Position numbers and translations under genes: made by a program | Assembly: GCA_964372635.1 (NCBI GenBank) | Contig: CAYJQW010000004.1 | Coordinates: forward strand, 840-64,839 | From: an uncultured Candidatus Saccharibacteria bacterium | Lineage (GTDB): Bacteria; Patescibacteriota; Andersenbacteria; UBA10190 | Length of the DNA stretch: 64,000 nt | Reading direction: 5' to 3' | The notes under the pieces: model-generated | What the model was told of the DNA's origin: nothing | Databases searched by the model: none | The model's input: the letters and a program-made list of their open reading frames with translations, nothing else | Shown: positions 1 through 63,947 of the stretch, piece after piece | How the letters are laid out: the number at the start of each line of letters is the position of its first letter | Position numbering within the stretch: position 1 is the stretch's first letter

Positions 1-1
1 A

Positions 2-1138: not shown

Positions 1139-1185
1139 CACCGTCGCTGCTATAAAAAAAGTGCGTTTGACGGTGAACGAAATTA

Positions 1186-3138: not shown

Positions 3139-3177
3139 AGATTGGAGTATAACGGTATTTGCTTCTAATCTAAACCT

Positions 3178-21926: not shown

Positions 21927-21966
21927 GAAGATTATTCTGACTGATTCATGCTACATTGTCGACATT

Positions 21967-32714: not shown

Positions 32715-32728
32715 GTATTTGTTGAACT

Positions 32729-33868: not shown

Positions 33869-33941
33869 TAATAATTTACAGTTTTTACATTAAACGAAAG
33901 ATTATTGACATTCAACTAATCGTCATGCAACTGTCAACGCA

Positions 33942-45043: not shown

Positions 45044-45076
45044 AATCCGACTTTACAATAGAAGTCGGATTTTTTT
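45044..45076 (+). terminator. plus-strand intrinsic-terminator-like hairpin
   Basis: aatCCGACTTtacaatagAAGTCGGatttttttgcgc: a 7-bp stem with 8-nt loop and a 7-T run on the plus strand. Both flanking genes are on the minus strand, so it would terminate an unannotated plus-strand transcript from the 44733..45052 gap. Confidence 0.35.
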
Positions 45077-46627
45077 GCGCATAAGGGCTGCAGCTTCATT
45101 TATTTCTTTAATATCAAATAGCCAAGCGCCGCCAAAGTATACGGTGCACCCAACTAGCGCCGGAACCATGACCTGTATAATCAACATTAAATCTCGGGGC
45201 AGATCATAAAAGTGTATTAAAGGTCGCGTCAGATTAATAACCAATATAAGAGCAATGGCCAACAATGAAGTTTTTAAGTAAACGGGATGCCAAAAAATCA
45301 TATATAGCTTGTCAATAAAACGGGACAAGTAGAGAAAATATAGCAAGGCAATCGCGAGCGGTACCAAAGATGAGCCAAGGGCGAGTCCGGCATGACCCAT
45401 GGTGGGAACAAGCAGCACAAACAGGAAAATGGCAATAGCTTGGGAAGAAATAGTCACGGCGGCTGAAGCGCGAGTTTCTTGCAAGGCTAGGGTAGCATAT
45501 CCCAAGACTGCACTGATGCCATTAATAGTTAGTCCAATGACAAAGAATAGTAGAGCAATGCTTGTTTGAGCAGAATCCAGCGCAGAAAATGAGCCGCGCT
45601 CATAAAGGAGAGAGATTAGTGGATTACGCAGAAGAGCAATACATATAATCACTGGAACTGTCACAAAGGTAATTAACCTCATGGCGTTACTGATCGTTGT
45701 CCGCATACCTCGATAGTCTCTATGACCTGCTTTTTCAGATAAGAGAGGATAAACAACGGTTGTCACCGAGGTCAGAAACATTATGGTCACAAGCTGCGAT
45801 ATTTTTTCTGCGAATTTGAGCGATGACAGACTACCCGCTGATAAGTCAGAAACCAATATACGATAAACAATGCCGGCCGCCTGGGTTACGGCGACTGAGT
45901 AGATGAAAGGATAAACGAGCATTGCCAAACGCCTGATTTTGGGATCAAACGGTCTTAGCACAAAGTGGTATTGAAAGCCGTTTCTGCGCAAGGTATATCC
46001 GACCATTATAAATTGAAACAAAGAACCGATGAGGGCTCCATAAGCCAGCGAGCTAATACCCAGTGTATCTATGGTGAGTACCAAAACTACGATAGATGTT
46101 AAGGGAGCGATAATGCGCAGTAAGGCAGGTACTAAAAAATGTTTAACCGAATGCAACATTGCGGTTGCCAAATCGGCCAGGAAAAGAAACAAAAATGACG
46201 GTAGCAGAACACGCAATAGTATAATTGTCTGAGCTGTTGTTGCCTGGTCAAAACCTGGAGCAATGAAATTAATAAATGGATCTGCGAATATGCCAATGGT
46301 AAGAATTAAAATAAGAAAAGCGATCGAGGTGAGGTGAAATATGTTTAAACCAAGTGTCCAGGCTTCATGTTTTTGACCACGCGTCAGGTATTTGACAAAC
46401 ATTGGCAAAAATACAGACGTTATTGATCCACCCATCAGGAGTTTACTAACTAATTCTTGAGCTGATTGGGCCATGAAGAAAGCATCCGTGTCTTGACCTG
46501 AACCAAAGTAAAATGCGACAAGCAGTTGCAAAAAAAATCCGGCCAAGGCACCGCCAAGGGCACTGGCCGCTATTAATCCAGCTGAGCCTAATGTTGCCTC
46601 TGATTCAGTTCTCATCACCGTTATCAA
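45053..46627 (-). CDS. murJ: MOP-superfamily flippase, MurJ/MviN-like (lipid II or lipid-linked oligosaccharide flippase)
   Basis: 524 aa with ~14 TM helices. The N-terminal motif FGSGQDTDAFFMAQSAQELVSKLLMGG...TSVFLPMF matches the MurJ signature G.G..TDAF.VA...P.L......G......F.P. Confidence 0.55.
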   Translation of the reverse strand: MITVMRTESEATLGSAGLIAASALGGALAGFFLQLLVAFYFGSGQDTDAFFMAQSAQELVSKLLMGGSITSVFLPMFVKYLTRGQKHEAWTLGLNIFHLTSIAFLILILTIGIFADPFINFIAPGFDQATTAQTIILLRVLLPSFLFLFLADLATAMLHSVKHFLVPALLRIIAPLTSIVVLVLTIDTLGISSLAYGALIGSLFQFIMVGYTLRRNGFQYHFVLRPFDPKIRRLAMLVYPFIYSVAVTQAAGIVYRILVSDLSAGSLSSLKFAEKISQLVTIMFLTSVTTVVYPLLSEKAGHRDYRGMRTTISNAMRLITFVTVPVIICIALLRNPLISLLYERGSFSALDSAQTSIALLFFVIGLTINGISAVLGYATLALQETRASAAVTISSQAIAIFLFVLLVPTMGHAGLALGSSLVPLAIALLYFLYLSRFIDKLYMIFWHPVYLKTSLLAIALILVINLTRPLIHFYDLPRDLMLIIQVMVPALVGCTVYFGGAWLFDIKEINEAAALMRKKIRLLL

Positions 46628-47457: not shown

Positions 47458-48924
47458 TTATTTAGCAGTTATCCAGCGTAAAGACGGGTGCAGACTGGCA
47501 ATATATGTTCGATCTTTGGGAGTAATTTCCTGCAAAGCTAAAAGAACGACGATGTAGATACAGCCCGATAGTAAATATTGAGGAATAAGAGTTAGAGGCG
47601 AAGCAATCCAAATATATGTAGGCGCAACAGCAAAGGCACTTGCTGCCAGAATATTGATGGTACTACGCAGCGGTAGCGGAATGGCGAAGGATTTAAAAGT
47701 GTAATAAGAAAGTAGACTAAGACCGATTAAACCTGAAATCGTTGTTTGTAAACTGGCACCCAATAAGCCTTTTGATGGAATCAGAAACCAACCAAATGTG
47801 GCGCTACTAATTATCAGGATACAAGTAATCACTAAAGCAACTTTTGCTTTACCGGCACCAGCCACTATATTGGCAAGTAGGAGATAGAATGCTAATGCTC
47901 CCAAACCAATCATAAGAATCGTCAATGATGGTGCCGCTGGAATGTATTCCCGAGAGAAGAATAAAATGAGAAGTGGCTTACTAGTTGCCGAGGCAAGAGC
48001 AACACCTGGTACTATCAACATTATCAAATAACGAATAGTTTCAGCAATAAATGTGACGGCAGCCTGACGTGACTCCCGGGATGAAGTCAGTTTTGAGACA
48101 CTGGGTAAAAGGATAAAACCGATGGCTTGCAGCAATAGGTATGGAATACGTGACAGTGTTACCGCTGCGTTATAATAGCCAGTTTGAACATTATCGCGAA
48201 GCAATGCTTTGACCATGAAGAGGTCTAGGCTAATTAAAACTTGCAAGCCAACAAGTGTCAGGGTGTAAGTTCCAGCAAAGGCCATGAATTTCTTAAGAGA
48301 TAGTTTCTTTTCTCCACTGCCGCCAACCCTTTGTGTCCAATACCAACCGATAACCGCGGCTATAATTCCACCTAAGGCAAAGCCGGCAAAAGCTCCATAG
48401 ACACCAATAAAGTAAATCAACACCAGGGCGCCCGCTAACTTGATGATCGCATATATGGCCGTCAATAAAGCCTGCCGACTGAAAAGATGCATGCCGCTAA
48501 AGAATTGGACGTACATTGGGTATAGCGACTGCACAAAAATAACCAAGGCTACAAACCAGATAAGCGGTATCAAACTTAAGTCACCAAGTAGTCGACTCAC
48601 AAGCGGAGCGGTACCGAGAATAATAATTACGATCGCCAAGGCAACGTAAATCTGAAGACGAACGGCCTGTCTTAAGATACTGCGGGCATGATCATGATCA
48701 CGGGCAACGAACCGAGATATAGCGGCGGGCACGCCAAGAGACAAAACCAAACCAAATATTGATTGAATTGACAGCACCACGCCGTAAATACCATATGGAG
48801 CTGGACCAAGAACACGACCAATCCACAAATGGGTAGCATACCCTAAGATCAATACGAGAGCCTGGGCCATGGTGACTACCATGGCACCAGTAAGACGTGA
48901 TTGTGGCTGATAATCTTTTTTCAT
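47458..48924 (-). CDS. Wzx-like oligosaccharide flippase (polysaccharide biosynthesis protein, MOP superfamily)
   Basis: 488 aa, 12-14 TM helices, no soluble domain. The length and topology are typical of Wzx/PST-family flippases. Confidence 0.55.
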   Translation of the reverse strand: MKKDYQPQSRLTGAMVVTMAQALVLILGYATHLWIGRVLGPAPYGIYGVVLSIQSIFGLVLSLGVPAAISRFVARDHDHARSILRQAVRLQIYVALAIVIIILGTAPLVSRLLGDLSLIPLIWFVALVIFVQSLYPMYVQFFSGMHLFSRQALLTAIYAIIKLAGALVLIYFIGVYGAFAGFALGGIIAAVIGWYWTQRVGGSGEKKLSLKKFMAFAGTYTLTLVGLQVLISLDLFMVKALLRDNVQTGYYNAAVTLSRIPYLLLQAIGFILLPSVSKLTSSRESRQAAVTFIAETIRYLIMLIVPGVALASATSKPLLILFFSREYIPAAPSLTILMIGLGALAFYLLLANIVAGAGKAKVALVITCILIISSATFGWFLIPSKGLLGASLQTTISGLIGLSLLSYYTFKSFAIPLPLRSTINILAASAFAVAPTYIWIASPLTLIPQYLLSGCIYIVVLLALQEITPKDRTYIASLHPSLRWITAK

Positions 48925-51248
48925 AACGTAGAAACAAGGCCCAAGGCGATAATATCAAGACTGATAGGAGCAGAATAAGGGTTAAGCAGTGTCAGTCTAA
49001 TAAATCCGTCATTAGATATCGGAACATCGTGCGCTGCTATCGTCACCGAATTTTGACCAGATGCAAATTCATAGCGCGCCCCTGTCTCTGTCAGCACCTC
49101 TAAACTGTCACTAGGATTTTTTCTAGTCACAAGAAAACGAACATCAGTATTAGGATAACCTGTTTTTTCTTTATCCCATAAAATGGAAACATAATCGCCG
49201 ACGTTGAAACTCGTGGTTATATAAGGAGAGGTTGTCGTGCGATAGGTACACGTCCCGTCAATCTCAGGGCTTGTTAGTCTTGATACCCGCAGGCTGGCTG
49301 GTAAATGTTCAAACGTATCCTCTTGATCGCCGATATCGTTTACTAGTGTACTGGCCCGAAGCATGAAAATTTGATCGTTTTCCGATAGACTGGATGTTGC
49401 ACATATCACATCTGGAAACCTTGACGTAAAAAGCGTTATATCCTGGTCAGACGTCTCTGCTGTTAAAGCTGGATTAAATGCAAAGTTATCTGAACTCTTC
49501 TCGTTAATTCCAGCCAGCCATCTAATGCTATGCTTTTGCAAAAGATCCGAAATAATTTGATTATTTCCCAGCGAAAATATTTTTTCATAATCAAGTTGAC
49601 GCAAGTACAGCTGATAACGGGTCTCAGATTGATTTGCTTCCAGCATTTGGCGCTGTAAATCTGCGGCTAAACGGTTAAACTGTGATCGGCCTGATAGCGC
49701 AAGCCAAGAACTACTGCGGCGATTAAAGTCGTCGGTTAACACGGCCCCTGGTCCGACCTGTCGTTGCAAATAGTCGGATAAAAGGAGTTGCCCTGTCGAG
49801 AGCGTTGAGTTCGTCCTGACAGTATGTGATAAATGAAATGCCTGTACTGTTGTTACCCAGCCACTAGCGCCCACCAGGCCGATTAAAGCCAATATTAGAC
49901 TGCGACGCCAACTGACCTCAACTAAACTGGATATTTTCTTACCTAAGATAATAACAAAATAAGCGCCGCTTATACTCAAAGGTAGAGCTGTATAAAATAA
50001 TGCACGAACCGGTGGAATATCGATAAATATTCGGGGACCCTGTGAGAGTAGAAGTAGAACGATAGTACTCAATCCAAAAGTCAAAATAAGCGGCTCTCTT
50101 GATCTTTCTATCAAACCTTTCCTAAGTATCAAGAGTAAGCCAGAAACGCCTACAAGCAGCCAAATATGTCCCATCAAACGGGGGTAATCAAATAATCGTG
50201 GTAACTGGTCAATTAAATGAGGTGTAGTTGTAAATATATCGCCCAGCTTAGTTTGTAAATTGAGTGCTAGACCACCTACAAATACCAAAGAAAAAAGTAA
50301 TATAATTAATGTGGTGACTTGAGGCGTTAATAGATTTTTAACGCCTCTATTGCGAATAAAATATACAGCAATGACTGGCATCATTATAAAAAAGGCTAAA
50401 AAGGCGGAAAACTGATGGGTAAGTGCCAGAGAAATAGCCGTTAGAACCATTAGGACCATATCGGATGATCGCCATTTAGCAATTAAGGATAGACCAAGTA
50501 AGAGCAAGCCAAATAAAAAGAATTCACCGATTATGTTTTGATAGTGGTAGCCTGGTTCACGGATGTAACGAAGGAAACGAACCTGCGTCAATAATAAAAA
50601 AGCAATGGCTATAGCAAATGATAATTGTGAATATCTAGGAAATATTTTTCTCGCGATGGCGATTCCAATGACGGTGGTTGCCAGCGTCATGGCAATTGAC
50701 ATAAAGCCGATTGATGTCAGCGAACCGTTCGCTAATTCAAGTACACTAGCCGTCATTGTGTGCAACCCAGGAGTAAAAAAATCAACGCGATCCCTATTCA
50801 ATAGTTCGGATGCAACAGTGTAATCAGCCAATGCATTGTTTTTGATAATGCTTTGTGCCCACAAAATAGCCTTCTGGCTGTCACCAGTTGGCAGACCATG
50901 ATGGAAGCGAAGATACGGAATACTGAAAATAGAAAAAATAACAACAAATGAAGCACTCAGCATTAAAATATATCGACCGTCTTGGCGATGCTTTTGAGAT
51001 TTCTTAGGAAGTAGAAAGCAGAAAAGCGTTAAACAAGAAGCAAATAATACAACAAGCAGTCCCGGTAAATGCAGCGCAGCAGCGACCAGTGTTCCAATGA
51101 TTACAAAGTTAAGGCTCCAAAGAATAATACGGGCAGCCTGGGCCCAAACATCATGATTTCGACTGAATCTAGAAAATCCCAAACCGGGCACAATGATATG
51201 CAGAAGAGGAGAGAGAACAACCATCACGGCGTTAAAAAAAAGACTCAT
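48921..51248 (-). CDS. large polytopic membrane protein with C-terminal soluble domain (GT-C-like or Wzy/ligase-like), function unassigned
   Basis: 775 aa. About 14 TM helices fill the first ~480 aa. The C-terminal ~290 aa are hydrophilic. It is first in a minus-strand block with two flippases. Confidence 0.45.
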   Translation of the reverse strand: MSLFFNAVMVVLSPLLHIIVPGLGFSRFSRNHDVWAQAARIILWSLNFVIIGTLVAAALHLPGLLVVLFASCLTLFCFLLPKKSQKHRQDGRYILMLSASFVVIFSIFSIPYLRFHHGLPTGDSQKAILWAQSIIKNNALADYTVASELLNRDRVDFFTPGLHTMTASVLELANGSLTSIGFMSIAMTLATTVIGIAIARKIFPRYSQLSFAIAIAFLLLTQVRFLRYIREPGYHYQNIIGEFFLFGLLLLGLSLIAKWRSSDMVLMVLTAISLALTHQFSAFLAFFIMMPVIAVYFIRNRGVKNLLTPQVTTLIILLFSLVFVGGLALNLQTKLGDIFTTTPHLIDQLPRLFDYPRLMGHIWLLVGVSGLLLILRKGLIERSREPLILTFGLSTIVLLLLSQGPRIFIDIPPVRALFYTALPLSISGAYFVIILGKKISSLVEVSWRRSLILALIGLVGASGWVTTVQAFHLSHTVRTNSTLSTGQLLLSDYLQRQVGPGAVLTDDFNRRSSSWLALSGRSQFNRLAADLQRQMLEANQSETRYQLYLRQLDYEKIFSLGNNQIISDLLQKHSIRWLAGINEKSSDNFAFNPALTAETSDQDITLFTSRFPDVICATSSLSENDQIFMLRASTLVNDIGDQEDTFEHLPASLRVSRLTSPEIDGTCTYRTTTSPYITTSFNVGDYVSILWDKEKTGYPNTDVRFLVTRKNPSDSLEVLTETGARYEFASGQNSVTIAAHDVPISNDGFIRLTLLNPYSAPISLDIIALGLVSTL

Positions 51249-53425: not shown

Positions 53426-55231
53426 ATGACATTACTTCTTGTTATTTTAGCGGCAAGTTCGTTGATTGCTGCTGGTATTATTTTTAAGCATAAACGGCTA
53501 TTTAGTTTTATAGCCTCAGCTCTAATCATTTTTGAAGCTCATTGGCTCCTCCTTACAATAATTGATCGGACAATTGCTTTGGCGAGCAAAACATCAAATA
53601 TCTATTTGGGCGGTTCAATTATTTTACTTCTCTTCTGGATGGCACAGTGGCGACTCTGGACGTTTCCGAGATGGTTAAATTTTAAAGACGTGATAAAAGA
53701 TATTGGACCTGGTCTTATTCTCGTTGTAGTTTTGGCATCGGCGGCCGGCATCTCGTTCGCTAACGGTTGGCAGCCTGACGGTACTTTTATAACACATGGT
53801 TTTTTTAACGGCGACACGGCCACTTTTACCTCATTGGTTCAGAAGTCAATGGGTAGCGTAGGCCTAGTGAACAATAACCCCTTTGCCGGGAATGGATATT
53901 TGGAATATCCGACTCTACTTCATGCCGGTGTGGCCGAGTTTTTAACTGCTGTCTTACCGTCGGCAATATTGGGAAGTGGGTGGTTTGCCTTTCTGCCGCT
54001 CATGAACTACGTCTTTATTCTTGCCAGTGTGCCTCTTTTATTTTTACTTTGGGATGTTGCAATCCCAGAGCCAAGTGAAGCGTGGCAGGCTTGGCTTGGA
54101 ACCAAGTCACGACTAAAAGCTAACTTTCTGCAAACAATAATCGTTTTGTATATATTATCTTTGTCCTGGGAAAGCTTTGTATATCCACAAGGCCATTTTT
54201 TCTTAATGGGCTTGTTTTTCCTTCTCGTGGCGCTCCTCCTCAAAAGCCAAAATGCTCGAGGGGCTCAACATTGGTTACTGATCGGATTAGCCCAGGTTAT
54301 TACTCTTGAATTACTAATGTCTAATGCCGTCACGGGAACAGCCGCGGTCGTATTGACTACATCATTTTGGCTACTGGGTTCAAATAGTAAAAAACTTCAA
54401 GTTCCTGAGCGAGCACTATCATTATTAGCCGCTTTATTTTGGATTGGTCTGTTTCTTGTTAACGTGCCTGGTGAAAGCGCGTTCGGCCGTCCTGGTTTTT
54501 CATATACTGCGGCTCTTGATATGTTGCGGCTGGCACCAGTCCTACTATTGATTTTTATTGGACTTTTACAGAACGTCTCCAAACACACTTTAATGGCTGT
54601 TATGGTAACAGCATTAGTATCAGTTTCATATATAACTTTTATTTTTTCGAGTCGAGATATAATTGTCGCTAACGCTTCTCGTTTTCTCTATCACGCCATA
54701 CTGGTTGGCTTCCCTTTAGCTATTTATCCACTGACACGGGGAATATGGTGGTTGCGGCGGGAACTTCTTCAGACATCACACACCTTAGCGGAGCTTATAA
54801 CGGGATGGGCCGTTGTTACGGCAGTGGCCGGATTCTATTTATTGCCAGCTTTGGCCAGTGTTGCTAGCACCTTTGACAATTTACTTTGGCAGGACGAGCA
54901 GCGTATTTCGTCCCTTGAGCAGGGAGCATTGCAGTGGATCAATAATAACACTTCGGCTGACGCCATTTTTCTTGCATCGCCGGATGCCCCTTGGAGTATT
55001 CCGATTTTCACAGGTCGAGCAATCGTCCGCACTAATTATTGGCTATCACCAAAAGATGCTTTACTTGATGATATTCGGCTTGCCTATACTGGAAATAGTA
55101 CGGCTCAAAAAAAAGTACAGTCAGAGGCTGACTACTTATACTTGCGAGCTCAGGATAAAAACTGGAAAATCTATCCAGCCACACAGCCGGTATTTAAGAG
55201 CGCCGCCGTGACGATTTGGAAACTAAATTAA
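53426..55231 (+). CDS. polytopic membrane protein (601 aa), function unassigned, possibly GT-C/polymerase-like
   Basis: About 14 TM helices across most of the length, with a C-terminal ~130-aa soluble segment. Confidence 0.4.
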   Translation: MTLLLVILAASSLIAAGIIFKHKRLFSFIASALIIFEAHWLLLTIIDRTIALASKTSNIYLGGSIILLLFWMAQWRLWTFPRWLNFKDVIKDIGPGLILVVVLASAAGISFANGWQPDGTFITHGFFNGDTATFTSLVQKSMGSVGLVNNNPFAGNGYLEYPTLLHAGVAEFLTAVLPSAILGSGWFAFLPLMNYVFILASVPLLFLLWDVAIPEPSEAWQAWLGTKSRLKANFLQTIIVLYILSLSWESFVYPQGHFFLMGLFFLLVALLLKSQNARGAQHWLLIGLAQVITLELLMSNAVTGTAAVVLTTSFWLLGSNSKKLQVPERALSLLAALFWIGLFLVNVPGESAFGRPGFSYTAALDMLRLAPVLLLIFIGLLQNVSKHTLMAVMVTALVSVSYITFIFSSRDIIVANASRFLYHAILVGFPLAIYPLTRGIWWLRRELLQTSHTLAELITGWAVVTAVAGFYLLPALASVASTFDNLLWQDEQRISSLEQGALQWINNNTSADAIFLASPDAPWSIPIFTGRAIVRTNYWLSPKDALLDDIRLAYTGNSTAQKKVQSEADYLYLRAQDKNWKIYPATQPVFKSAAVTIWKLN

Positions 55232-55947
55232 GCATCGCCCTACTAATCACAACGCTAGCTATGTTAGATTCGTTACTTGAGTCTGTTGACCCAAGCCTTA
55301 ATAAAGTCGACACGATCCAATTTGGTAGCTGGGTAATCAAATTATTTATCATATCCGAATGGCCGAATAACATCCCAACAATACGGCAGGTTCACGGAAG
55401 TTATATTATTTCAGCTGATGATATTTCAGGAAATCTTCAGGAAGCTGATGGTATAGGTATTAGGTTGAGCCACGATAAAAGATCAAGTAATCCTCTGATA
55501 AAAGAAGTCGGTATCAAGACGGCTGATTGCCTGCCATTGGTCTTAATGACTGAAACGGTAGCCCTACTTCTGCATACCAGTCGCAAAACTCTTATCCATG
55601 GTTTGCTAAATCAAGTCACTAGGTGGCTTGATCCCGCCATGATTAAGCACGTGTATGTTGGACCGCATATCTGTCCTGAGCACTTCACATTTGAATGGGT
55701 AGGTCCGGATTTGGCGAGATTCATCGAACTATTTCCTGCGGCAGTTGATGAATATAAAGGAATCTACTCGCTATCGCTACGCGATGCGGTACAAGAATAT
55801 TTCAACACTTGGCGTGTTCGCGAAGAAATTATAGAGGAGGATTTACGTTGTACTTTTGAAGCTTCAGAGTTGGCGTCTTATGTCCGCAGTCTTCGCAGTG
55901 GTGAAAAACTTAACTCTCATTTGGCAACAGTTGTTGCAAAGAACTAA
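55216..55947 (+). CDS. hypothetical protein, weak similarity to the YfiH/PgeF (DUF152) family
   Basis: QVHGSYIISADD and KTADCLPLVLMT resemble the conserved His and ADC.PV motifs of the YfiH family. The downstream HAGWRG motif is degenerate (HTSRKTLIHG). The start overlaps the upstream gene by 16 bp. Confidence 0.3.
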   Translation: METKLSIALLITTLAMLDSLLESVDPSLNKVDTIQFGSWVIKLFIISEWPNNIPTIRQVHGSYIISADDISGNLQEADGIGIRLSHDKRSSNPLIKEVGIKTADCLPLVLMTETVALLLHTSRKTLIHGLLNQVTRWLDPAMIKHVYVGPHICPEHFTFEWVGPDLARFIELFPAAVDEYKGIYSLSLRDAVQEYFNTWRVREEIIEEDLRCTFEASELASYVRSLRSGEKLNSHLATVVAKN

Positions 55948-56989
55948 TAAAAGCCTCAGCTTGCTTTGGCCAATTAAAACGTTCGAGTGTAAAACGTCGA
56001 GCCTGAAGATTTGGTTTTGGATTTTGTAAAAATTCTTTCAAAACGCTAATCCAAGCCGGAGCATCTTGCGGATTTAGTAACGTTCCATTCTGACCGTCAT
56101 GGATAGCGTCAACGATGCCGTCAACTCGACTGGCAAAAATCTGCCGGCAACAAACAGCTGCTTGAAGTAGTACTAGCCCAAACCCCTCAGCATCATTTTC
56201 TGTAAAATTATTCGGCTGTATAAAAGCATCCACCGTGTTATAAAGAATACTGAGATCATTCTCTGAGACTCGACCGAGCATAATAACACGTCTACCTGAG
56301 CTAAGTATTTGTTGCTGAAGCGCCTCTTTTTGGGGACCATCACCAGCAATGACGTATACGACATTGCTGGACATAGCCGGTAATATTTTCTGGATAAACC
56401 AGGCATGTCCCTTTCTTTTAATTAGACGTCCAGCGGTGAGTAAGACAAGATCTCGGGACAGTAATTGGTAACCAGCAACATGCATGAGTAGTTTAGTCAG
56501 CTTGTCACGACTAGTTGAGGGTTGATAATAAGTGTCATAAATGCCAGGATTCAAAACCAAAACTTCAGATTTTGTTTTACTAAACTTGGTTTTAAGAAGA
56601 CCACTCACATAACCGCTGATGGCTAAATAGAGATCGAAATTTCTGAAAAATAATTTTAAATAAAGCTGATATATTGTTAGATCATAAAGAATGTCCAGAC
56701 CATGAACGGTGACAGTGATTGGCTTCTTATAAATCTTTTTAATAAGCCAGCCAATTAGGGCAAGAGTTGGATCACCTAAATGCACTACGTCTACTTGTCG
56801 GGAAGCCATCAGTGCGCGAGGTATTGTAAACAATACAAAAAATAGCGCCGTGGCTCTCGAGCCAGCGTGCGTAATCGTCTTGACTATTACACCAGGTTGC
56901 TTTTTAACCTCACTAATTAGCTCAAAGCTCAGCCGTTCCATTCCACCGCTGTTAGTTCCATAGGCGCGGGTGATAAACAAAATTATCAT
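55910..56989 (-). CDS. GT4 family glycosyltransferase
   Basis: MIILFITRAYGTNSGGMERLSFEL is a GT4-type N-terminus. ENDAEGFGLVLLQAAVCCRQIFASRVDGI is EX7E-like. Confidence 0.75.
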   Translation of the reverse strand: MIILFITRAYGTNSGGMERLSFELISEVKKQPGVIVKTITHAGSRATALFFVLFTIPRALMASRQVDVVHLGDPTLALIGWLIKKIYKKPITVTVHGLDILYDLTIYQLYLKLFFRNFDLYLAISGYVSGLLKTKFSKTKSEVLVLNPGIYDTYYQPSTSRDKLTKLLMHVAGYQLLSRDLVLLTAGRLIKRKGHAWFIQKILPAMSSNVVYVIAGDGPQKEALQQQILSSGRRVIMLGRVSENDLSILYNTVDAFIQPNNFTENDAEGFGLVLLQAAVCCRQIFASRVDGIVDAIHDGQNGTLLNPQDAPAWISVLKEFLQNPKPNLQARRFTLERFNWPKQAEAFISSLQQLLPNES

Positions 56990-57038
56990 ATAAGACTTAC
57001 TTAAAAAGTGGAGTCAAATTTTCGTGAAGACTAATGGT

Positions 57039-58052
57039 TCAACTTTGTGATTTGTCCTTAGAATATGCCTGCTCTCTAGCGTAATAAACTGCCTCTTCGG
57101 CAATCAGGCGGTTACGATGCAGCATATCGGCCAGCATAGATAGAAATAACAACAAAAAACCAACAATAATAAAAATACCCGAGACTGACACTAAGGAGCG
57201 ATAGGGGGCGGTTTGGCCGGTCTGGATATAATGTGTTAGTAAAAATATACCACTGACAATACCAATCATAAAAAGTGTGAGTCCTGGGATGCCAAAGAAA
57301 TAATGAGGTAAATAATCTCGGGCAGTGCGAAAAATTATGGTGCTGGTTTTAAGACCGAACCGCCACAAATTACCAGCGACCCGGGATTCACCAAATTCCC
57401 GCTCGCCGCGAACCATTAGTGACACTTCGGCCATAGTGATGTTTTTAAAAGCGAGGTCAATAAATGTCTCCTGTGTATATGTAAAATGTCCGAAAAGAGT
57501 TAGGCGCAACGCCGCCTCTCGCGAGTAAGCTCGAAAGCCGCATGAAACATCAGTAAAATTCTTTTGAGTAATAAGATTAATGATTCTGACCATCCATTTA
57601 TTACCCCAACGTTTTATGCCGGGCATAACCGGCTCGAACTTCGCACTGGCGAAGCGTGTAGCCGTAACAAAATCAGCCCGTTCTTGTTGAATAGGCTTAA
57701 TTAAGGAAGCGATATCCTGGGGATTGAATTGACCATCGCCGTCGATGTTAACGATTATTTCAGCTTGTGCCATCAAAGCCTCACGTAACCCAGTATGAAA
57801 AGCGGCGCCGACGCCGAGATTATCGGCATGACTTACGACTCGGGCGCCCGCCTCACGAGCAGTCTGGGCAGTTGAGTCGTTTGAGCCATCGTCAATCACA
57901 ATAGCCTCGACCGATGAAACTCCTGGCAGGTCACTTGGAATGGCACGAATAACGGACGCTATAGTTTGTTCCTCATTAAGTGCTGGAATAATTACAACCA
58001 TTTTTCTATTTTGAGCAATCGATTGTTTACCAGTCGAGTGATTCATAGTCAT
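57039..58052 (-). CDS. GT2 polyisoprenyl-phosphate glycosyltransferase with C-terminal TM helices (GtrB/ArnC-like)
   Basis: MVVIIPALNEEQTIASVI, AIVIDDGSNDSTAQTA and NIDGDGQFNP. Two C-terminal TM helices (TLFMIGIVSGIFLLTHYI and IFIIVGFLLLFLSMLADML) are the hallmark of GtrB/ArnC-type lipid-phosphate sugar synthases. An alternative ATG lies at 58001. Confidence 0.8.
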   Translation of the reverse strand: MTMNHSTGKQSIAQNRKMVVIIPALNEEQTIASVIRAIPSDLPGVSSVEAIVIDDGSNDSTAQTAREAGARVVSHADNLGVGAAFHTGLREALMAQAEIIVNIDGDGQFNPQDIASLIKPIQQERADFVTATRFASAKFEPVMPGIKRWGNKWMVRIINLITQKNFTDVSCGFRAYSREAALRLTLFGHFTYTQETFIDLAFKNITMAEVSLMVRGEREFGESRVAGNLWRFGLKTSTIIFRTARDYLPHYFFGIPGLTLFMIGIVSGIFLLTHYIQTGQTAPYRSLVSVSGIFIIVGFLLLFLSMLADMLHRNRLIAEEAVYYAREQAYSKDKSQS

Positions 58053-58137
58053 AGTCTAACACTAAATTGCATTGAAACTGCAGAATAAATCAAACAAATG
58101 AATTGTCAATGGCTGGCATCAATGTTACTCTTCCCCA

Positions 58138-59568
58138 ATGAAATTGAAACTGATATTTTTTATCGTCTTTATTATTGGCATTGGGCTAGTTCTTTCTGGT
58201 TCGATCGAGGCAGCTGGCTTGAATTCGAGAATTAACGAAGCATTCTCCGCTGTGTTTGGTAGAAATCCGACGGCGACTGAGAATTTATATTGGACGACGA
58301 GAACTGTTGATCGAAAAAGTTTTGCGGCATTGCAAGACACTATGCGGTTTTACAAAAGCCAAAATAAGACAGTTGGCGCTGCAGCTAAAGATTCTAGAAG
58401 TATATCGCAAGCCGTTAGGGCTTCTACTAAGCAGCAGTTAATCCGAGATGTATTACCTCTCTTTGTCCAGATTTATGGTAAGGACCCCTCAAATGCAGAT
58501 AAAATATGGTGGCGTAAGCGAATCTCTTGTGATGAAATTAAAGACAAGAAACAACTTGAATCATCAATGAGATTTCACAAAAACAAAGGTGTGAGTAAAG
58601 GCGCCAATACAATCTGCGGGCAAAAAGCTACGACGCCCAGCGGAGTAACAGCTCGTTCGGTGACTGGTTTTTCAGACCACCCTCTGGGCGATACTGTCCG
58701 CGTTGGTATATATAATGCAGGGAGTAAACCGGTCGTCATAGCTGCCAGCGGCAGATACCAAGTTAGAGAAGGTTCTGACACGAAAGCTACACTTAGCGAA
58801 GGGGACGCAGTGACAATTACCTATTCGGGTGGTCTCTATCATGTTCGAGGAGCTGTTGAAATAGAGGCAACAGAACCGATTCGGCTAGTACCGGTAGGTG
58901 GAACAATCATGCAGGTGAAGAGCTATAATGACCCCTCCGCCACGATACCAGGTAAAAATTATAATCGTTTTCGCGATACCATTGTTGTTACTAAATGCAC
59001 TAATTGTAGTGATGTGTGGGTGGTTAATGACGTTCGGGCTGAACATTACGCCAAGGGCCTCGCCGAAACGTCGGCGTCTGATGCGGGAGCAACCGAATTT
59101 TATAAAGCCTTAGCTATAGCTGCTCGTAGCTATGCCCTTTATCATCGCAACGTCACGGGCGGTCGTAGGCCAGCAAAAGGCTATGACATTGGTCGAACAG
59201 CTGATGATCAAATCTACCGTGGCTATGAATATGAAATTCTGGTCCCTCGCCTGGCGTCTGCAGTTGATCAAACACGCGGCGTTATTGTGACGGATAAAGA
59301 CGGCGATAAACCTCTCATTACGACATATTTTTCAGATTCTGGCGGAAAGACAAAAACTGCCCAAGAGGTATGGGGGACAACTGCTTCACGTTTCAGCCAC
59401 CTTCAAAAAAATGTTGATGATCCTCATCACGTTGCTGCCACCTGTCGCGGTCACTGTGTTGGCATGAGTGCGCAAGGAGCATTTGGGTTCGCTAAAAAGG
59501 ATGGCTGGAGTTTTCAAAGGATTCTGCAGCATTACTACCAAAACATTCGTTTGGTTAAAGCATATTGA
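58138..59568 (+). CDS. SpoIID/LytB-domain protein with N-terminal signal anchor
   Basis: N-terminus MKLKLIFFIVFIIGIGLVLSGSIEAAG (signal/TM). C-terminal TTYFSDSGGKTKTAQEVWG and CRGHCVGMSAQGAFGFAKKDGWSFQRILQHYYQNIRL match the SpoIID/LytB amidase-enhancer/lytic transglycosylase signature (YF.S.GG.TE..E.VW; GHG.GMSQ.GA...A..G..Y..IL.HYY). Confidence 0.65.
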   Translation: MKLKLIFFIVFIIGIGLVLSGSIEAAGLNSRINEAFSAVFGRNPTATENLYWTTRTVDRKSFAALQDTMRFYKSQNKTVGAAAKDSRSISQAVRASTKQQLIRDVLPLFVQIYGKDPSNADKIWWRKRISCDEIKDKKQLESSMRFHKNKGVSKGANTICGQKATTPSGVTARSVTGFSDHPLGDTVRVGIYNAGSKPVVIAASGRYQVREGSDTKATLSEGDAVTITYSGGLYHVRGAVEIEATEPIRLVPVGGTIMQVKSYNDPSATIPGKNYNRFRDTIVVTKCTNCSDVWVVNDVRAEHYAKGLAETSASDAGATEFYKALAIAARSYALYHRNVTGGRRPAKGYDIGRTADDQIYRGYEYEILVPRLASAVDQTRGVIVTDKDGDKPLITTYFSDSGGKTKTAQEVWGTTASRFSHLQKNVDDPHHVAATCRGHCVGMSAQGAFGFAKKDGWSFQRILQHYYQNIRLVKAY

Positions 59569-59647
59569 TACGACCAATACTGCCCAATATTGCCGCTTGT
59601 GATGACTTCTGATAAAACGTCAGTTGGCATCTTAAGATATTTGGATA

Positions 59648-59676
59648 TTTGGTAAATTAGATTCGACCCGTATAGT
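59648..59676 (+). promoter_or_regulatory. sigma70-like promoter candidate giving a leaderless transcript for the GT4 gene at 59683
   Basis: TTTGGT at 59648-59653, a 17-nt spacer, then TATAGT at 59671-59676. The ATG at 59683 lies 7 nt after the -10 element, at the expected transcription start. No Shine-Dalgarno sequence is present. Confidence 0.3.
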
Positions 59677-59682
59677 AAAAAA

Positions 59683-60834
59683 ATGAAGCTAACCCTCATC
59701 ACTGAGTATTGGGGAGAGCGCGGTGGAGCGGAAAACTACCTTTGGAATATAGGTCACTTTCTTGCACCAGGCAGCCTAACAGTTATCGCGCCTCGCTCTG
59801 GCCATAGTAAATTGCCTATTGGTAGTGGCATCAATAACATCTCTATTCAGCGTTTACGCTGGCCGCTACTTTGGCCTAGTTGGTTGCCACTGTTTTTACA
59901 TCTTTATCGTCAAGCTCGCCAGGGTGAGCTGGACGTTTTGCTTTGTGGCAAAACATTATTTGAAGGACATCTTGGATATTTCTTGAAAAAATATGCCGGT
60001 GTGCCCTATATAGTTTTTACTTATGGTATGGAGATTGAATATTGGAACCAGCATAGACGGTCCTTTAAGAAAATGTTGAAGGTGTTGCGCCGAGCTGATC
60101 TTATAATCTACATCAATGAAGTAACCAAGAAGAAACTCATTGAATTTGGTATCGCCCAAGATCAAATAATCAAGATACAGCCTGGTGTTACTGCGAGACA
60201 TCTGAACAAAACAAGCCGGCCAATGATTGAATCACGGCTGCGCTACTATAATATTAAACAGCCTTATGTCCTGGCAGTAGGTCGGCTGATTGCTCGTAAG
60301 GGGTTTGATGTTTTAATCGAGGCTTTCGCTGGTCTTGATCAAACTATATTTAGCCAGCACCGACTGGTGATTATCGGTGATGGTCCCGACCTTCGGCATC
60401 TCCAATCTGTTGCCGAGAGAAATTTTATAGGTACCAGCATTACCTTTTTGACAAAGGTACCTGATAAAGACTTACCATCCCTGTATGCCGGCGCGGAAAT
60501 CTTTGCACTCACCCCATGTGAAATTAGTGGTGAGCTAGAAGGCTTCGGTATTGTTTATTTGGAAGCAGCCGCCCATGGTATACCAGCTATTGGTACAAAA
60601 ACTGGCGGTGTTCCTGAAGCAGTCCTCGACAATAAAACAGGTTTAATTATAATGCCAGCTGATACTTCGGGGTTAACTAGGGCTCTAAAGCGATTACTGG
60701 TAGATGCCGAACTTCGAGCTAATTTTGGTCTTGCCGGACAACAACGTGTGTTAAAGCAATTCCAATGGGAGACAAAAAGTGCTCAATTGCAAACAGCTAT
60801 TGAAAAGATCCTCGCGCACACGCAGAGTTATTAG
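59683..60834 (+). CDS. GT4 family glycosyltransferase
   Basis: EGFGIVYLEAAAHGIPAIGTKTGGVPEAV is the EX7E motif; 383 aa. Confidence 0.85.
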   Translation: MKLTLITEYWGERGGAENYLWNIGHFLAPGSLTVIAPRSGHSKLPIGSGINNISIQRLRWPLLWPSWLPLFLHLYRQARQGELDVLLCGKTLFEGHLGYFLKKYAGVPYIVFTYGMEIEYWNQHRRSFKKMLKVLRRADLIIYINEVTKKKLIEFGIAQDQIIKIQPGVTARHLNKTSRPMIESRLRYYNIKQPYVLAVGRLIARKGFDVLIEAFAGLDQTIFSQHRLVIIGDGPDLRHLQSVAERNFIGTSITFLTKVPDKDLPSLYAGAEIFALTPCEISGELEGFGIVYLEAAAHGIPAIGTKTGGVPEAVLDNKTGLIIMPADTSGLTRALKRLLVDAELRANFGLAGQQRVLKQFQWETKSAQLQTAIEKILAHTQSY

Positions 60835-60848
60835 CTAGTTATTTAATT

Positions 60849-63503
60849 ATGGACCTGGCGCGTACACAACTCTTATCTCTTATTACCAAGGCGGTCACAA
60901 CGTCATTTGGCATTATCCAGTCGATTATTATAATTCGGCTGCTTACTCCTGCTGATTACGGTTTGGTTGGATTAGTATTGTCGATCGGAGGCGTCATTGG
61001 TGTAACGCAGCATCTTGGCATAGTTGATGGGGTAATTCGTGAAATTGCTATTCTCAAAAACAAAACGGAAGCCGGTAAAGTATTTTGGGTGTCACACTTA
61101 GTTCGTCAGGCAGTAACTATTCCGCTTTCAAGCGCTTTATTTATGGCAGCACCATTCGTGGCAACAAAGCTTTACGATCGTCCGGAGATTATCCCATATA
61201 TTCAACTCTTCGCGGCCGTACTCGTTTTGCAGGGTTTGCAGGATGTACTGGGAGCAACGTTAACTGGCATTAAGAAATTCGGGGCTTTGTATATAACACA
61301 AATAGCGACGGCAATTATAAATATTATTGTTTTTGGGTATCTGACCTGGCAATTTGGCATCAGCGGTTTTTTTATCGCCATCATCGTTACTACCTGCCTC
61401 ATGGTGGCGATAATGTATTTAATACTTTCTAGACACAGCATTGAGTTTGCGCCGCGGAGCATCAGCAAAATTGGCCTTGATAGTATTAAAAAATATTTAA
61501 GGCGTGTTATGAGGATCGGCGCCTACATGTACGTGGCGCGAATATTTTTTGTTGTCTGGCAGCGTCTGCCACTACTCATATTAGGTGCTGTTGTATCTGC
61601 CGAGGAACTTGGCTACCTCAACGTGTCGCTAACTTTCGGTTCGCGTCTAACTATTATTGCGATGGCATTATCGGAAGTAAATTTATCTTGGATGAGTTCT
61701 TTGTACTTAGATAAACGCCCAGAATTTAGTCGCGTTGTTACTCGTAACATGCAGCGAGTGCTTGTTGTCATGTCTTTTCTGACACTTATTTTATTGTTCT
61801 TTACTCCAGAAATCCTGCGCTATGTTATCGGTTCAGAATATCTTCCAGCCAAACACATTATATTGCTGATGACGTTGGCATTTTTTCTGTATTCGCTTAT
61901 GGATATCGGCACCAGTAGCGTTTTCGTGCCAGCGGATAAACCACGATCGCGTGCTCAAATTTACGCCGTGATGCTTAGCATTACAGCGCTTCTCACCATC
62001 TGGCTAGTCAAGACACGCCCGGATGCCTTACTCGCCTCCCTCGCAGTACTTTTTGGGGCACTGGTCGCCTACGTCTGTATGGTTATTTTAGTAAAACGTC
62101 AGTTTAACATTTCTCTTTTAACCAGGCCTCTATTAATTGTTCTCTTAGCCCTGTTTACTTCAGCTGCTTGGTTATTTACCGACCCGCCGGCTGAACAAAG
62201 AACTCTAATCTTTCTCGGTCTAATAGCCTACACCTTTTGGGTAGCGCGACGCAGTCAGCTATTGCCCTCATTTAATTTAGCTATTGATCACCAGCCAAAC
62301 AGTTTATTGCCACGTCGAATAATTTGCTTTTCCGGTGCTTCATATGACGCGCCAAGCTGGACTAACCGTCAACACATAATGAGCCGAGTTTCTAAGCGAA
62401 TGCCGGTTTTATACGTCGAACCTAGAGTATGGATTATGCGATATTTCTGGCAAAATTGGCGTCATCCTAAAAGACTGGCCAACTTTCTTTGGCGTCTCAT
62501 CGGATATGAGAAAAAACATAGTAAGCTGATTATTGTTTCTCAGTGGAACCTTTTACCAGGATCACGCGAAAATAAACTTGTTGCCTGGTGTAACCATTGG
62601 TTACTTAATCGTTGGCGGATTATTCTTCTCGCTAAACTGCTTGGTTTTTACCCACCTGGCAAGTTTAACAAGCATCTTATTGTTTGGATCTACGACACTG
62701 AAGCTGCCGAATACCTATCGGCCTATCGAGATAATTTTGTTTTGTACGATTGCGTCGACGACCACGCGGCTCAGGCTGGACCAGACAGAAATCCGGCGAA
62801 AGTACGTGCCGAAGAAAAAGCCATATTACGCCAAGCTGATCTTGTGACAGTAACAAGTCAGAAATTATACGAGCAAAAAAAGTCTTGGAACAAAAACGTC
62901 AACCTAGTTATCAACGCAGGTGATGTTGCTTTATTCATACAGCCATCAAAATACAAGCCAGCCTTTGATTTCGCTGACGGCAGGCCGATCATTGGAACAG
63001 TTGGCGCCCTTGACTCTTATAAAATTGATTTCGATTTATTGCAAACCGTAGCTACTAAGAAACCGACATGGCATTTTGTCTTTGTCGGTGCGCCGGTTGT
63101 CGAGCGTATGAGTCGGGAGTTATGGGCAATCATGAAATTGCCAAATGTGCATATATATCGCGAAGTGCCTCGTGAAGATGTACCGGATTATGTATACAAA
63201 TTCGATGTGTGTATGATTGCTTATAAAAATAGCGCTTATAATGCGGCCAGCTTTCCCTTAAAATTCTGGGAATTTATGGCGACAGGCAAGCCTATAGTTG
63301 TCTCCGGAGTACCAGAACTAAAAGTTTACTCACATTTGATCACATATACTGAAACGGATGAATTATTTATAAATGGCATTGAAGCTGCTCTGCAGTCACC
63401 GGACTTGAGCAGTTTAGCGCGGCGAACGGAGGCACGTATCCACTCATGGGATAATAGGGTAGAGCAACTTTTTGAATTAATAAACATTAAAGTTGTTCAA
63501 TAA
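60849..63503 (+). CDS. fusion protein: N-terminal Wzx-like MOP flippase domain plus C-terminal GT-B glycosyltransferase domain (TuaH/GT4-like)
   Basis: 884 aa. Residues ~1-480 are 12-14 TM helices resembling a PST/Wzx flippase. Residues ~490-884 are soluble and have GT-B features (ICFSGASYDAPSW...LYDCVDDH...HFVFVGAP...SFPLKFWEFMATGKPIVVSG). I see no internal stop or frameshift in the sequence. Confidence 0.55.
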   Translation: MDLARTQLLSLITKAVTTSFGIIQSIIIIRLLTPADYGLVGLVLSIGGVIGVTQHLGIVDGVIREIAILKNKTEAGKVFWVSHLVRQAVTIPLSSALFMAAPFVATKLYDRPEIIPYIQLFAAVLVLQGLQDVLGATLTGIKKFGALYITQIATAIINIIVFGYLTWQFGISGFFIAIIVTTCLMVAIMYLILSRHSIEFAPRSISKIGLDSIKKYLRRVMRIGAYMYVARIFFVVWQRLPLLILGAVVSAEELGYLNVSLTFGSRLTIIAMALSEVNLSWMSSLYLDKRPEFSRVVTRNMQRVLVVMSFLTLILLFFTPEILRYVIGSEYLPAKHIILLMTLAFFLYSLMDIGTSSVFVPADKPRSRAQIYAVMLSITALLTIWLVKTRPDALLASLAVLFGALVAYVCMVILVKRQFNISLLTRPLLIVLLALFTSAAWLFTDPPAEQRTLIFLGLIAYTFWVARRSQLLPSFNLAIDHQPNSLLPRRIICFSGASYDAPSWTNRQHIMSRVSKRMPVLYVEPRVWIMRYFWQNWRHPKRLANFLWRLIGYEKKHSKLIIVSQWNLLPGSRENKLVAWCNHWLLNRWRIILLAKLLGFYPPGKFNKHLIVWIYDTEAAEYLSAYRDNFVLYDCVDDHAAQAGPDRNPAKVRAEEKAILRQADLVTVTSQKLYEQKKSWNKNVNLVINAGDVALFIQPSKYKPAFDFADGRPIIGTVGALDSYKIDFDLLQTVATKKPTWHFVFVGAPVVERMSRELWAIMKLPNVHIYREVPREDVPDYVYKFDVCMIAYKNSAYNAASFPLKFWEFMATGKPIVVSGVPELKVYSHLITYTETDELFINGIEAALQSPDLSSLARRTEARIHSWDNRVEQLFELINIKVVQ

Positions 63504-63507
63504 AGAA

Positions 63508-63547
63508 GAAAGGCTCCACCGCAATGCGGTGAAGCCTTTAGTTTTTT
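63508..63547. terminator. bidirectional intrinsic terminator between convergent genes
   Basis: aaAGGCTcCACCGCaatGCGGTGaAGCCTTtagtttttt: a GC-rich stem of about 12 bp with one bulge, followed by a T-run on the plus strand and by an A-run complement on the minus strand. Confidence 0.5.
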
Positions 63548-63947
63548 AGTGGCGCAAGTTATCGAGAATAGTCCTAAATTGCTCCACTCCTGGGTCGACA
63601 GATTCAGGTATGAAGATGATATACAAAGGTTTTTTTCCATCTTCATCTACAATCGTACAAGTCCACCGAAGTTCGATTTTGGCGTTCTTGTAAGACGGCA
63701 TCCCTATCTGTGGTACGACCACGACTTGGCAACCAAGCTGCTGAAAATCTTTTATTCCGACTTTCAATTTTTCGTAGGAAGTAAATTTCATATTACACCC
63801 TGGGTATCTGATCGGATAGAGACGAGGTGGATCAGTTCGGTTATCTCGGCCATAACCCGTCCAGACATGCTTGGCTTTTAGACCGGTGAATTCCGCCTGC
63901 AACGAAGTCCAAGCGGCCTCTCCGTACCTGGTCTTAAATTCCCTCAT
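63546..63947 (-). CDS. hypothetical protein, 5' end beyond the window (frame stays open upstream to position 64000)
   Basis: The minus-strand ORF ends at the bidirectional terminator. The frame upstream of the ATG at 63947 has no stop before the window edge, so this is the C-terminal part of a longer gene. I recognise no motif. Confidence 0.35.
   Translation of the reverse strand: MREFKTRYGEAAWTSLQAEFTGLKAKHVWTGYGRDNRTDPPRLYPIRYPGCNMKFTSYEKLKVGIKDFQQLGCQVVVVPQIGMPSYKNAKIELRWTCTIVDEDGKKPLYIIFIPESVDPGVEQFRTILDNLRH

Follow-up and report, generated by a model that had tools for sequence, protein, structure and literature searches.

The 64,000-nucleotide (nt) stretch considered here, referred to as the window, belongs to contig CAYJQW010000004.1 of assembly GCA_964372635.1, from an uncultured bacterium of the Patescibacteriota lineage Andersenbacteria. 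Near its end lies a gene on the forward strand (60849..63503, + in the list of open reading frames) that begins with ATG and runs for 884 codons to a stop codon. A reading of the letters without database searches, called here the sequence-only reading, had described this open reading frame (ORF) as the joining of a Wzx-like flippase domain of the MOP superfamily to a glycosyltransferase (GT) domain of the GT-B fold. The coordinates proved exact, and both domains were recovered. It is probable that the gene encodes a genuine bifunctional membrane protein, a flippase and a cytoplasmic GT derived from two merged, coupled genes, in which a hand-off of substrate from one domain to the other is proposed.

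Domains of the fused protein

An AlphaFold2 (AF2) model of the 884-amino acid (aa) protein was made with 46 homologues as input and had a mean predicted local distance difference test score (pLDDT) of 90.9 and a predicted template modelling score (pTM) of 0.74. The model contains 14 transmembrane (TM) helices between residues 3 and 468, a low-confidence linker at residues 479-485, and a GT-B domain with two Rossmann-like halves at residues 490-884. On this basis, and with the profile matches described below, the protein is divided into a Wzx/PST-type MOP flippase domain (residues 1-468; 60849..62252, +), delimited from Pfam, AF2, Foldseek and charge bias; an inter-domain tether (residues 469-489; 62253..62315, +), marked by low pLDDT, low column identity and the lack of a Met codon; and a GT4-like GT-B domain of a TuaH-related subfamily (residues 490-884; 62316..63500, +), delimited from Pfam, NCBIfam and Foldseek. 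Both domains are well folded and under purifying selection.

The N-terminal domain matched the Pfam families Polysacc_synt_3 at residues 28-334 (E 1.3e-21, 77.5 bits against a cutoff of 23) and Polysacc_synt at residues 12-265 (44.6 bits against a cutoff of 28.2). With the 14 helices of the model, these matches bear out the expectation of a Wzx-like domain with 12-14 TM segments. The match to the NCBIfam model of the MOP flippase PRK10459 was weak (21 bits against a cutoff of 273), and the fusion is not an equivalog of PRK10459. A Foldseek search of the PDB with the TM domain returned WzxE (9g9p_A) as the best match, with a TMt of 0.83, and MurJ (7wax) with a TMt of 0.74, so that the domain has the MOP fold. 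Counted over the AF2 helices, the loops predicted to lie inside contain 24 lysine plus arginine residues and those predicted to lie outside contain 7. The 14 helices together with this positive-inside bias put the GT on the cytoplasmic side, with access to nucleotide sugars, and in the model both termini of the TM domain, hence the GT, are predicted to be on that side of the membrane. Nine charged or polar residues, R64, E65, R86, Q131, D132, R231, R303, D352 and R368, do not vary across the fused family and may include residues of a central cavity that would bind the lipid-linked glycan. The flippase half belongs to the Wzx/PST type of the MOP superfamily, with a predicted translocation activity.

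The C-terminal domain matched Glycos_transf_1 at residues 703-822 (36.2 bits against a cutoff of 26.4) and Glyco_trans_1_4 at residues 713-823 (41.4 bits against a cutoff of 27), both from Pfam. The best curated match was to the TuaH-like NCBIfam model NF047676 at residues 609-876 (1.8e-34, 119.3 bits), covering profile positions 99-382 of 384. The score did not reach the TuaH equivalog cutoff of 550 bits and falls so far below it that the domain is assigned to a related subfamily, not to TuaH orthologues. Foldseek gave full-length alignments to the PDB structures of MshA (3c4q, TMt 0.72), PglA (8dvz, TMt 0.71) and HepE (TMt 0.71), and the pattern of strands and helices at residues 490-884 of the AF2 model agrees with two Rossmann-like halves and a C-terminal helix that crosses back. 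The description of this part as a soluble GT-B domain therefore stands. Its matches to PDB sequences were weak and were exclusively to GT4 enzymes.

Both sequence blocks that had been quoted for the GT domain are present, FPLKFWEFMATGKPIVVSG at residues 802-820 and HFVFVGAP at residues 742-749. The first includes the donor-site motif FPLKFWEFMATGKP (residues 802-815; 63252..63293, +), identified by conservation and by alignment to PDB sequences. P803, L804, K805, F806, W807 and E808 show no variation among the 46 fused homologues, where conservation of F802 is at least 90%; S801, F802, P803, L804, K805 and F806 are also invariant when stand-alone homologues are added to the alignment. In the alignment to Tll1590 and MshA, E808 coincides with the second Glu of the GT4 EX7E motif. 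Fused and stand-alone forms alike keep the motifs TNRQ, EPR and YDCVDxH unchanged in the N-terminal half of the GT. The same half contains an amphipathic region rich in basic and aromatic residues (residues 526-560; 62424..62528, +), with nine Lys or Arg, one Asp or Glu and eight Trp, Phe or Tyr, a helical hydrophobic moment of 0.65, the highest in the GT domain, and AF2 helices at residues 529-535 and 540-551. It is probably a membrane-interface element.

The tether between the two domains is the least conserved part of the protein. Its column identity over the 46 homologues is 0.30, compared to 0.70 for the flippase domain and 0.65 for the GT domain; its length varies from 12 to 32 aa, and pLDDT falls below 50 at residues 479-485. 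Residues 440 to 510 include no Met, and the sole alternative starts within the tether are TTG codons at 472 and 487, neither of which is preceded by a Shine-Dalgarno sequence. As there is no plausible internal start, the GT cannot be produced as a protein of its own in this genome. The sole hint of a defined arrangement of the two domains in the model is the pTM.

Continuity of the reading frame

The sequence-only reading had taken the frame to be continuous and free of a frameshift artefact, and several lines of evidence agree. At the junction the DNA has no homopolymer of more than 4 nt. Over the length of the gene the two alternative frames are interrupted by 58 and 54 stops, before as well as after the junction, which indicates that both halves are native to one frame. 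An independent assembly from Logan (P0379) encodes a protein identical at 883 of 884 positions, with no gaps. In NCBI, JGI, ENA and Logan assemblies 146 homologues were found as 90%-identity clusters; the best 120 of these are all 850-915 aa long, with 96-100% query coverage, 52-60% identity and both Pfam domains, and those that carry an organism name are Candidatus Andersenbacteria. Hidden Markov models (HMMs) of the flippase and the GT also fall on one ORF in 26 GTDB species genomes, of which those with a name are labelled Candidatus Andersenbacteria. In the databases the fused homologues are annotated as 'oligosaccharide flippase family protein' or under two COG names.

Such a fusion had also been judged uncommon. 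When a profile of the fused family was searched against 1.84 billion representatives of 50%-identity clusters, the best 150 representatives included a single full-length fused cluster, together with its fragments. The next-best complete matches were separate proteins, either stand-alone GTs of ~390 aa, aligned to profile positions 485-877, or stand-alone flippases of ~480 aa, aligned to positions 3-467, and the judgement holds.

Among the same best 150 representatives some GT relatives were fused to other GT-like segments, and the TuaH-like GT subfamily seems to be fusion-prone. Its other multi-domain forms (P0131, P0137, P0148 and P0227; L051, L053, L055, L068, L070 and L071) comprise tandem GT-GT proteins of ~775-810 aa, proteins of ~1180 aa with three matched stretches, where it is joined to other GT-like segments, and proteins of ~745 aa, mostly from SAR324 metagenome-assembled genomes, where it follows an unrelated N-terminal extension of ~350 aa.

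Split orthologues and the origin of the fusion

The separate genes that correspond to the two halves were found side by side in more distant Patescibacteria. In Parcubacteria group bacterium Gr01-1014_38 the order is GT4(-), GT2(-), SpoIID(+), GT4(+), flippase and GT, as in the window at 55910-63503, and the TGA of the 475-aa flippase gene overlaps the ATG of the 400-aa GT gene in the sequence ATGA. A census was then based on an alignment of the GT domain to GTDB species genomes, in which separate flippase and GT HMMs were run on stop-to-stop ORFs at 78 loci. Both HMMs fell on one ORF at 26 loci, where GT identity to the window was 50-58%. Five loci (40-44%) had adjacent split genes, four with the ATGA overlap (L035, L039, L041 and L042) and one (L037) in which a TAA is directly followed by an in-frame ATG. 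At 40 distant loci in other phyla (27-33%) there was no flippase of this family in the stored flanks, which extended to at most 7 kb per side, and at four loci (51-53%) the contig end left the GT part alone visible.

The remaining three loci (54%) are interrupted away from the junction. In an otherwise intact fused gene, L006 (4473-4475) and L007 (4717-4719) each have one in-frame TAA, in the flippase half of one and the GT half of the other; these codons may be consensus errors or may mark recent pseudogenes. The gene break in L016 was considered as a split and rejected, since the run of N there is a scaffold gap.

Three further split loci with overlaps of 8-14 nt (L083-L085) came from the protein database. 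All eight split loci are from more distant Patescibacteria and share the same synteny, with a ~475-aa flippase and a ~390-aa GT. Their proteins are 36-45% identical to the fusion and break exactly at its junction. Whether orthologues are fused or split, a question that the sequence-only reading had left to comparison, thus has a two-part answer: the close ones (52-60% identity) are all fused and the distant ones are split at the junction, which makes the fusion a real evolutionary event instead of an artefact. The neighboring genes are syntenic in both classes and follow the same two-tier divergence.

Phylogeny gives a polarity to this change. In a GT tree rooted on the distant GTs, 191 of 200 bootstraps recovered the fused clade as monophyletic, with the split forms as a paraphyletic grade; in a concatenated tree, fused monophyly was recovered in all 200. 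A flippase-only tree rooted on the second Wzx of the window gave a monophyletic fused group in 68 of 200 replicates and a split group in 120 of 200. Its root was unstable, and it was therefore not used for polarity. Split adjacent genes in shared synteny, with the fused state confined to a derived clade, are the pattern of a Rosetta-stone fusion. By this comparison of sequences, the fusion is traced to a single event in the lineage labelled Candidatus Andersenbacteria, starting from two adjacent, translationally coupled genes.

The two genes would have merged when the stop codon of the flippase gene was lost or moved out of frame. Such a change would have required no more than one base substitution where TAA meets ATG, or a short indel within the ATGA of an overlap. 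The number of residues between shared HMM landmarks has a median of 27 aa (range 19-40) in fused proteins, and the flippase tail plus the GT head of split pairs have a median of 25 aa. The near equality of these values indicates that the tether is two ancestral tails joined, and it is a remnant of the C-terminal tail of the flippase and the N-terminal tail of the GT, to which no new sequence was added.

One candidate for a secondary fission was rejected. P0273 is a stand-alone GT that falls inside the fused clade, on contig L004 (positions 1-4987 of OBEQ010462274.1, GCA_900206355.1), where the G + C fraction steps from ~0.63 to ~0.52 exactly at the start of the GT and the upstream genes are unrelated. 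This contig is probably a chimeric metagenome assembly. In five of the eight split loci (L037, L039 and L083-L085) a PrsW-protease gene lies between the GT2 and SpoIID genes; none was seen at that position in any locus of the fused clade.

Genomic context

The fused gene belongs to a conserved module with the order GT4, GT2, SpoIID, GT4, flippase-GT, GT4, GT2 and Wzy. The part to the left of the fusion is present in the window, where its genes were identified by Pfam and synteny: a 359-aa GT4 glycosyltransferase, which is a conserved divergent neighbor (55910..56989, -); a 337-aa GT2 of the DPM1/GtrB/AglJ/PpgS type, likewise a conserved divergent neighbor, whose C-terminal segments are hydrophobic (57039..58052, -; Glycos_transf_2); a 476-aa SpoIID-domain protein (58138..59568, +; SpoIID); and a 383-aa GT4 (59683..60834, +) that ends 14 nt upstream of the fusion and reads in the same direction. 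The last of these is syntenic in the fused and split loci with enough upstream flank. The GT2 stands nearest to polyprenyl-phosphate glycosyltransferases, its best NCBIfam matches being AglJ (144 bits) and PpgS (105 bits), both under their cutoffs, and its role could be to start a monophosphate-linked glycan, not to decorate one.

The block of GT4, GT2 and Wzy_C lies directly downstream of the gene in every split locus, and in 17 of the 18 fused loci whose flank is long enough. Its presence in both classes identifies the module as a cluster of the Wzx/Wzy type for glycan assembly. In the window itself, the fusion is followed by a 133-aa minus-strand ORF (63546-63947), which has no Pfam match and no counterpart in the other loci, and a phmmer search (1e-8) found no Wzy homologue across the 64 kb. 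Rearrangement, a mobile insertion or an assembly break could account for the missing block.

The module is part of a glycan island of ~60 kb with many GT4, GT2 and GT9 genes and methyltransferases. It includes four GT-C/PMT_2-like membrane proteins (15013-16515, 18206-19840, 21925-23463 and 23525-25291), four tandem GT4 genes (30469-35186), a TagF-like enzyme (40016-41236), two GT9-like genes, a polysaccharide deacetylase, a C-methyltransferase, a GDP-mannose-dehydratase-like gene and an AsnB-like gene. About 12-15 kb upstream of the fusion there are a separate MurJ (45053-46627, -; 206.7 bits) and a second, stand-alone Wzx-type flippase of 488 aa (47458-48924, -). Since the genome has its own MurJ and a second Wzx, it encodes at least three MOP flippases, and the fusion is neither the lipid II flippase nor the sole Wzx.

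Some products of the island have little or no family assignment. Five ORFs of 650-963 aa had no Pfam match at E ≤1e-3 (48921-51248, 28290-30404, 11753-14173, 6709-9600 and 1186-3138) and may include polymerases, ligases or surface proteins that escaped recognition. A 601-aa polytopic membrane protein (53426-55231, +), with a weak match to DUF6798, is syntenic in at least two fused loci (L010 and L019) and may act with the module outside the cytoplasm, as a GT-C-type protein or otherwise.

Proposed function

The two domains suggest a sequence of two steps. The GT-B domain, held on a flexible linker of ~20 aa, would add one residue from a nucleotide sugar to a lipid-linked intermediate in the inner leaflet, and the 14-TM Wzx/MOP-type domain would flip the polyprenyl-linked glycan intermediate across the cytoplasmic membrane. 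A covalent link would fix the ratio of the two activities at 1:1 and would hold the GT beside the entrance of its own flippase. It is plausible that the product of the GT, possibly completed with its last sugar, passes directly to the flippase domain of the same protein, and the fusion may couple glycosyl transfer kinetically to flipping. The product would then be flipped promptly, and the lipid carrier would not be trapped in unflipped intermediates. Undecaprenyl-diphosphate-linked intermediates made where no functional flippase is present are believed to be toxic through sequestration of the lipid carrier (PMC11706664), and the finding that Wzx flippases favor their cognate units (PMC6436433) agrees with the proposed hand-off.

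A number of observations weigh against this proposal. A variable, disordered tether is no less compatible with a loose link than with a fixed interface. At least five further GTs are encoded in the clusters, so that the role of the fused GT in adding the last sugar is unsupported. The split lineages evidently work with no covalent link, and the fusion may therefore add little. On the side of the GT, the position of the first Glu of the EX7E motif is occupied by Ala or Ser in this family, and TuaH, the closest named relative, is itself just a putative GT (PMC6265299). On the side of the flippase, a profile of the domain had no match to PDB sequences even at E ≤1. As to the pathway, the GT4-GT2-Wzy_C block is absent in the window, where the contig ends ~1.6 kb past the gene, and no phosphoglycosyl-transferase primer of the Bac_transf or MraY/WecA type was recognised in the 64 kb.

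A neutral fusion is a serious alternative to the kinetic coupling, although we regard it as somewhat unlikely. Both domains would be active, with no kinetic or channelling effect, and their union would be a by-product of stop codon loss in genes whose 1:1 co-expression was already ensured by translational coupling. The tight coupling of the split forms speaks for it, as does a tether of 12-32 aa that consists of joined ancestral tails and is unconserved; the split lineages, moreover, keep the same module and presumably the same function. Against it, there has been no reversion in any of the 26 species genomes with an intact junction, the fused state has been kept in more than 120 90%-identity clusters in spite of a divergence to 52-60% identity, and the pTM of 0.74, reached with two domains of comparable length, is a hint of some favored arrangement. 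None of these points is decisive.

A wider form of the coupled reading can be put forward tentatively and with more doubt: the GT and Wzx may form an obligatory physical complex, non-covalent in the split lineages and perhaps general in Wzx/Wzy pathways, in which the GT docks at the cytoplasmic portal of the flippase and acts as a specificity gate that admits no unit but the one it has just completed.

The TM domain might handle, in place of a classical undecaprenyl-diphosphate-linked repeat unit, a polyprenyl-monophosphate-linked glycan primed by the neighboring GT2, or it might serve mainly as a membrane anchor or, like a synthase, as an export conduit for a glycan that the GT domain builds. 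The module does conserve the DPM1/AglJ/PpgS-like GT2 with its hydrophobic C-terminal segments, and the window, besides lacking a recognised primer, encodes several GT-C/PMT-like proteins, which are users of polyprenyl-phosphate sugars. These roles are nevertheless improbable, given the Wzx family membership and fold of the TM domain and the conservation of Wzy_C, typical of Wzx/Wzy pathways, three genes downstream in related loci; a primer is possibly encoded elsewhere in the genome. The known synthases have GT-A (GT2) catalytic domains and use their own helices as the channel, and are not known to combine a GT-B domain with a MOP domain.

It is more improbable still that the C-terminal domain is a catalytically dead, GT-like sensor of nucleotide sugar or binder of substrate that regulates or gates the flippase, in analogy to the pseudokinase domain reportedly fused to MurJ/MviN in Mycobacterium tuberculosis. 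The absence of the first Glu of EX7E and a TuaH equivalog score far under the cutoff would be in keeping with such a role. Many active GT-B enzymes, however, do without the first Glu; FPLKFWE, GxxGxxDxYK, TNRQ, EPR and YDCVDxH are invariant in the stand-alone ~390-aa GTs of the clusters as well, and the model gives a whole GT-B fold at high confidence. As to an assembly or sequencing artefact, by which a frameshift or a missed stop merged two genes in this contig, two genes of distant relatives do meet exactly at the junction, but with the full-length homologues from four sources of assemblies, the single ORFs of the species genomes, the gapless independent match and a junction free of long homopolymers in a shared frame, its probability is practically nil.

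Comparison with known systems

One of the closest known systems is that of Escherichia coli WzxE (9g9p) and the separate GTs WecF and WecG, which resembles the fusion in its Wzx families, in providing the best fold match, and in the setting of a GT/Wzy_C cluster. The logic is that of Wzx systems in general, including enterobacterial common antigen (ECA): cytoplasmic GTs build the lipid-linked unit and Wzx flips it. The fusion differs in that the GT is attached covalently to the C-terminus of the flippase and in that its TM domain has 14 helices, as does MurJ, compared to 12 in WzxE (PMC11706664). In addition, its TM domain has no detectable sequence similarity to the MOP proteins whose structures have been solved.

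The best curated match of the GT domain is the model of TuaH, a putative GT of Bacillus subtilis, where TuaB is the Wzx-like protein. The tua operon also pairs a TuaH-type GT with a MOP flippase. In that organism, unlike here, the two are separate proteins whose genes are not adjacent, and the GT of the fusion is not a TuaH orthologue. Peptidoglycan precursors offer another parallel. MurG, a membrane-associated GT-B enzyme, carries out the last cytoplasmic transfer on the lipid-linked precursor, which is then translocated by the 14-TM MOP flippase MurJ. This is the same two-step logic as that proposed for the fusion, but MurG (GT28) and MurJ are separate proteins.

Other fused proteins offer partial parallels. 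Mycobacterium tuberculosis MviN (MurJ) reportedly has a fused cytoplasmic pseudokinase domain, and it is a precedent for a MOP flippase with a large C-terminal cytoplasmic domain. In MviN the fused domain is regulatory and non-catalytic, whereas the domain described here is a complete GT-B with conserved donor-site residues. BcsA and hyaluronan synthase likewise join glycosyl transfer and translocation in one protein, but theirs is a processive GT-A (GT2) with its own TM channel, and here a GT-B domain is joined to an alternating-access MOP transporter within a Wzy cluster; with a GT-B catalytic domain and a TM domain of the MOP fold, the fusion is not a synthase of the BcsA/hyaluronan synthase type. 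MprF and other proteins with PplT domains share, in principle only, the union of a lipid-modifying enzyme with the flippase of its product in one polypeptide, and PplT domains fused to GT-A and GT-B domains have been reported (bioRxiv 10.1101/2022.03.11.483950). The PplT flippase fold is unrelated to MOP, and its substrates are phospholipids, not polyprenyl-linked glycans. No description of a fusion of a MOP flippase to a GT was found in the literature searched, the coverage of which was incomplete.

Implications

Both halves of the protein belong to known families, joined in a domain architecture that is specific to one lineage and whose origin is well resolved. The way in which lipid-linked substrates are received and selected by Wzx flippases is unsettled, and a physical coupling of GT and flippase has so far mostly been assumed. 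That the fusion arose once and extends through a lineage is evidence, of the comparative-genomic kind, for joint action of this GT and this flippase. The fusion further provides a single-chain construct for cryo-EM or biochemical studies of the hand-off, for which the split forms of the sister lineages are matched natural controls. If the GT does serve as a specificity gate, this would explain the preference of Wzx for cognate units and would offer a single-chain target for structures of substrate hand-off; if the fusion is neutral, it would be a tidy case of gene fusion through the loss of an overlapping stop codon. For the organisms themselves, the fused architecture is a clean marker of the Andersenbacteria-type clade, members of the Patescibacteria, in which genomes are small and yet, in this case, a region of ~60 kb is given over to envelope glycans.

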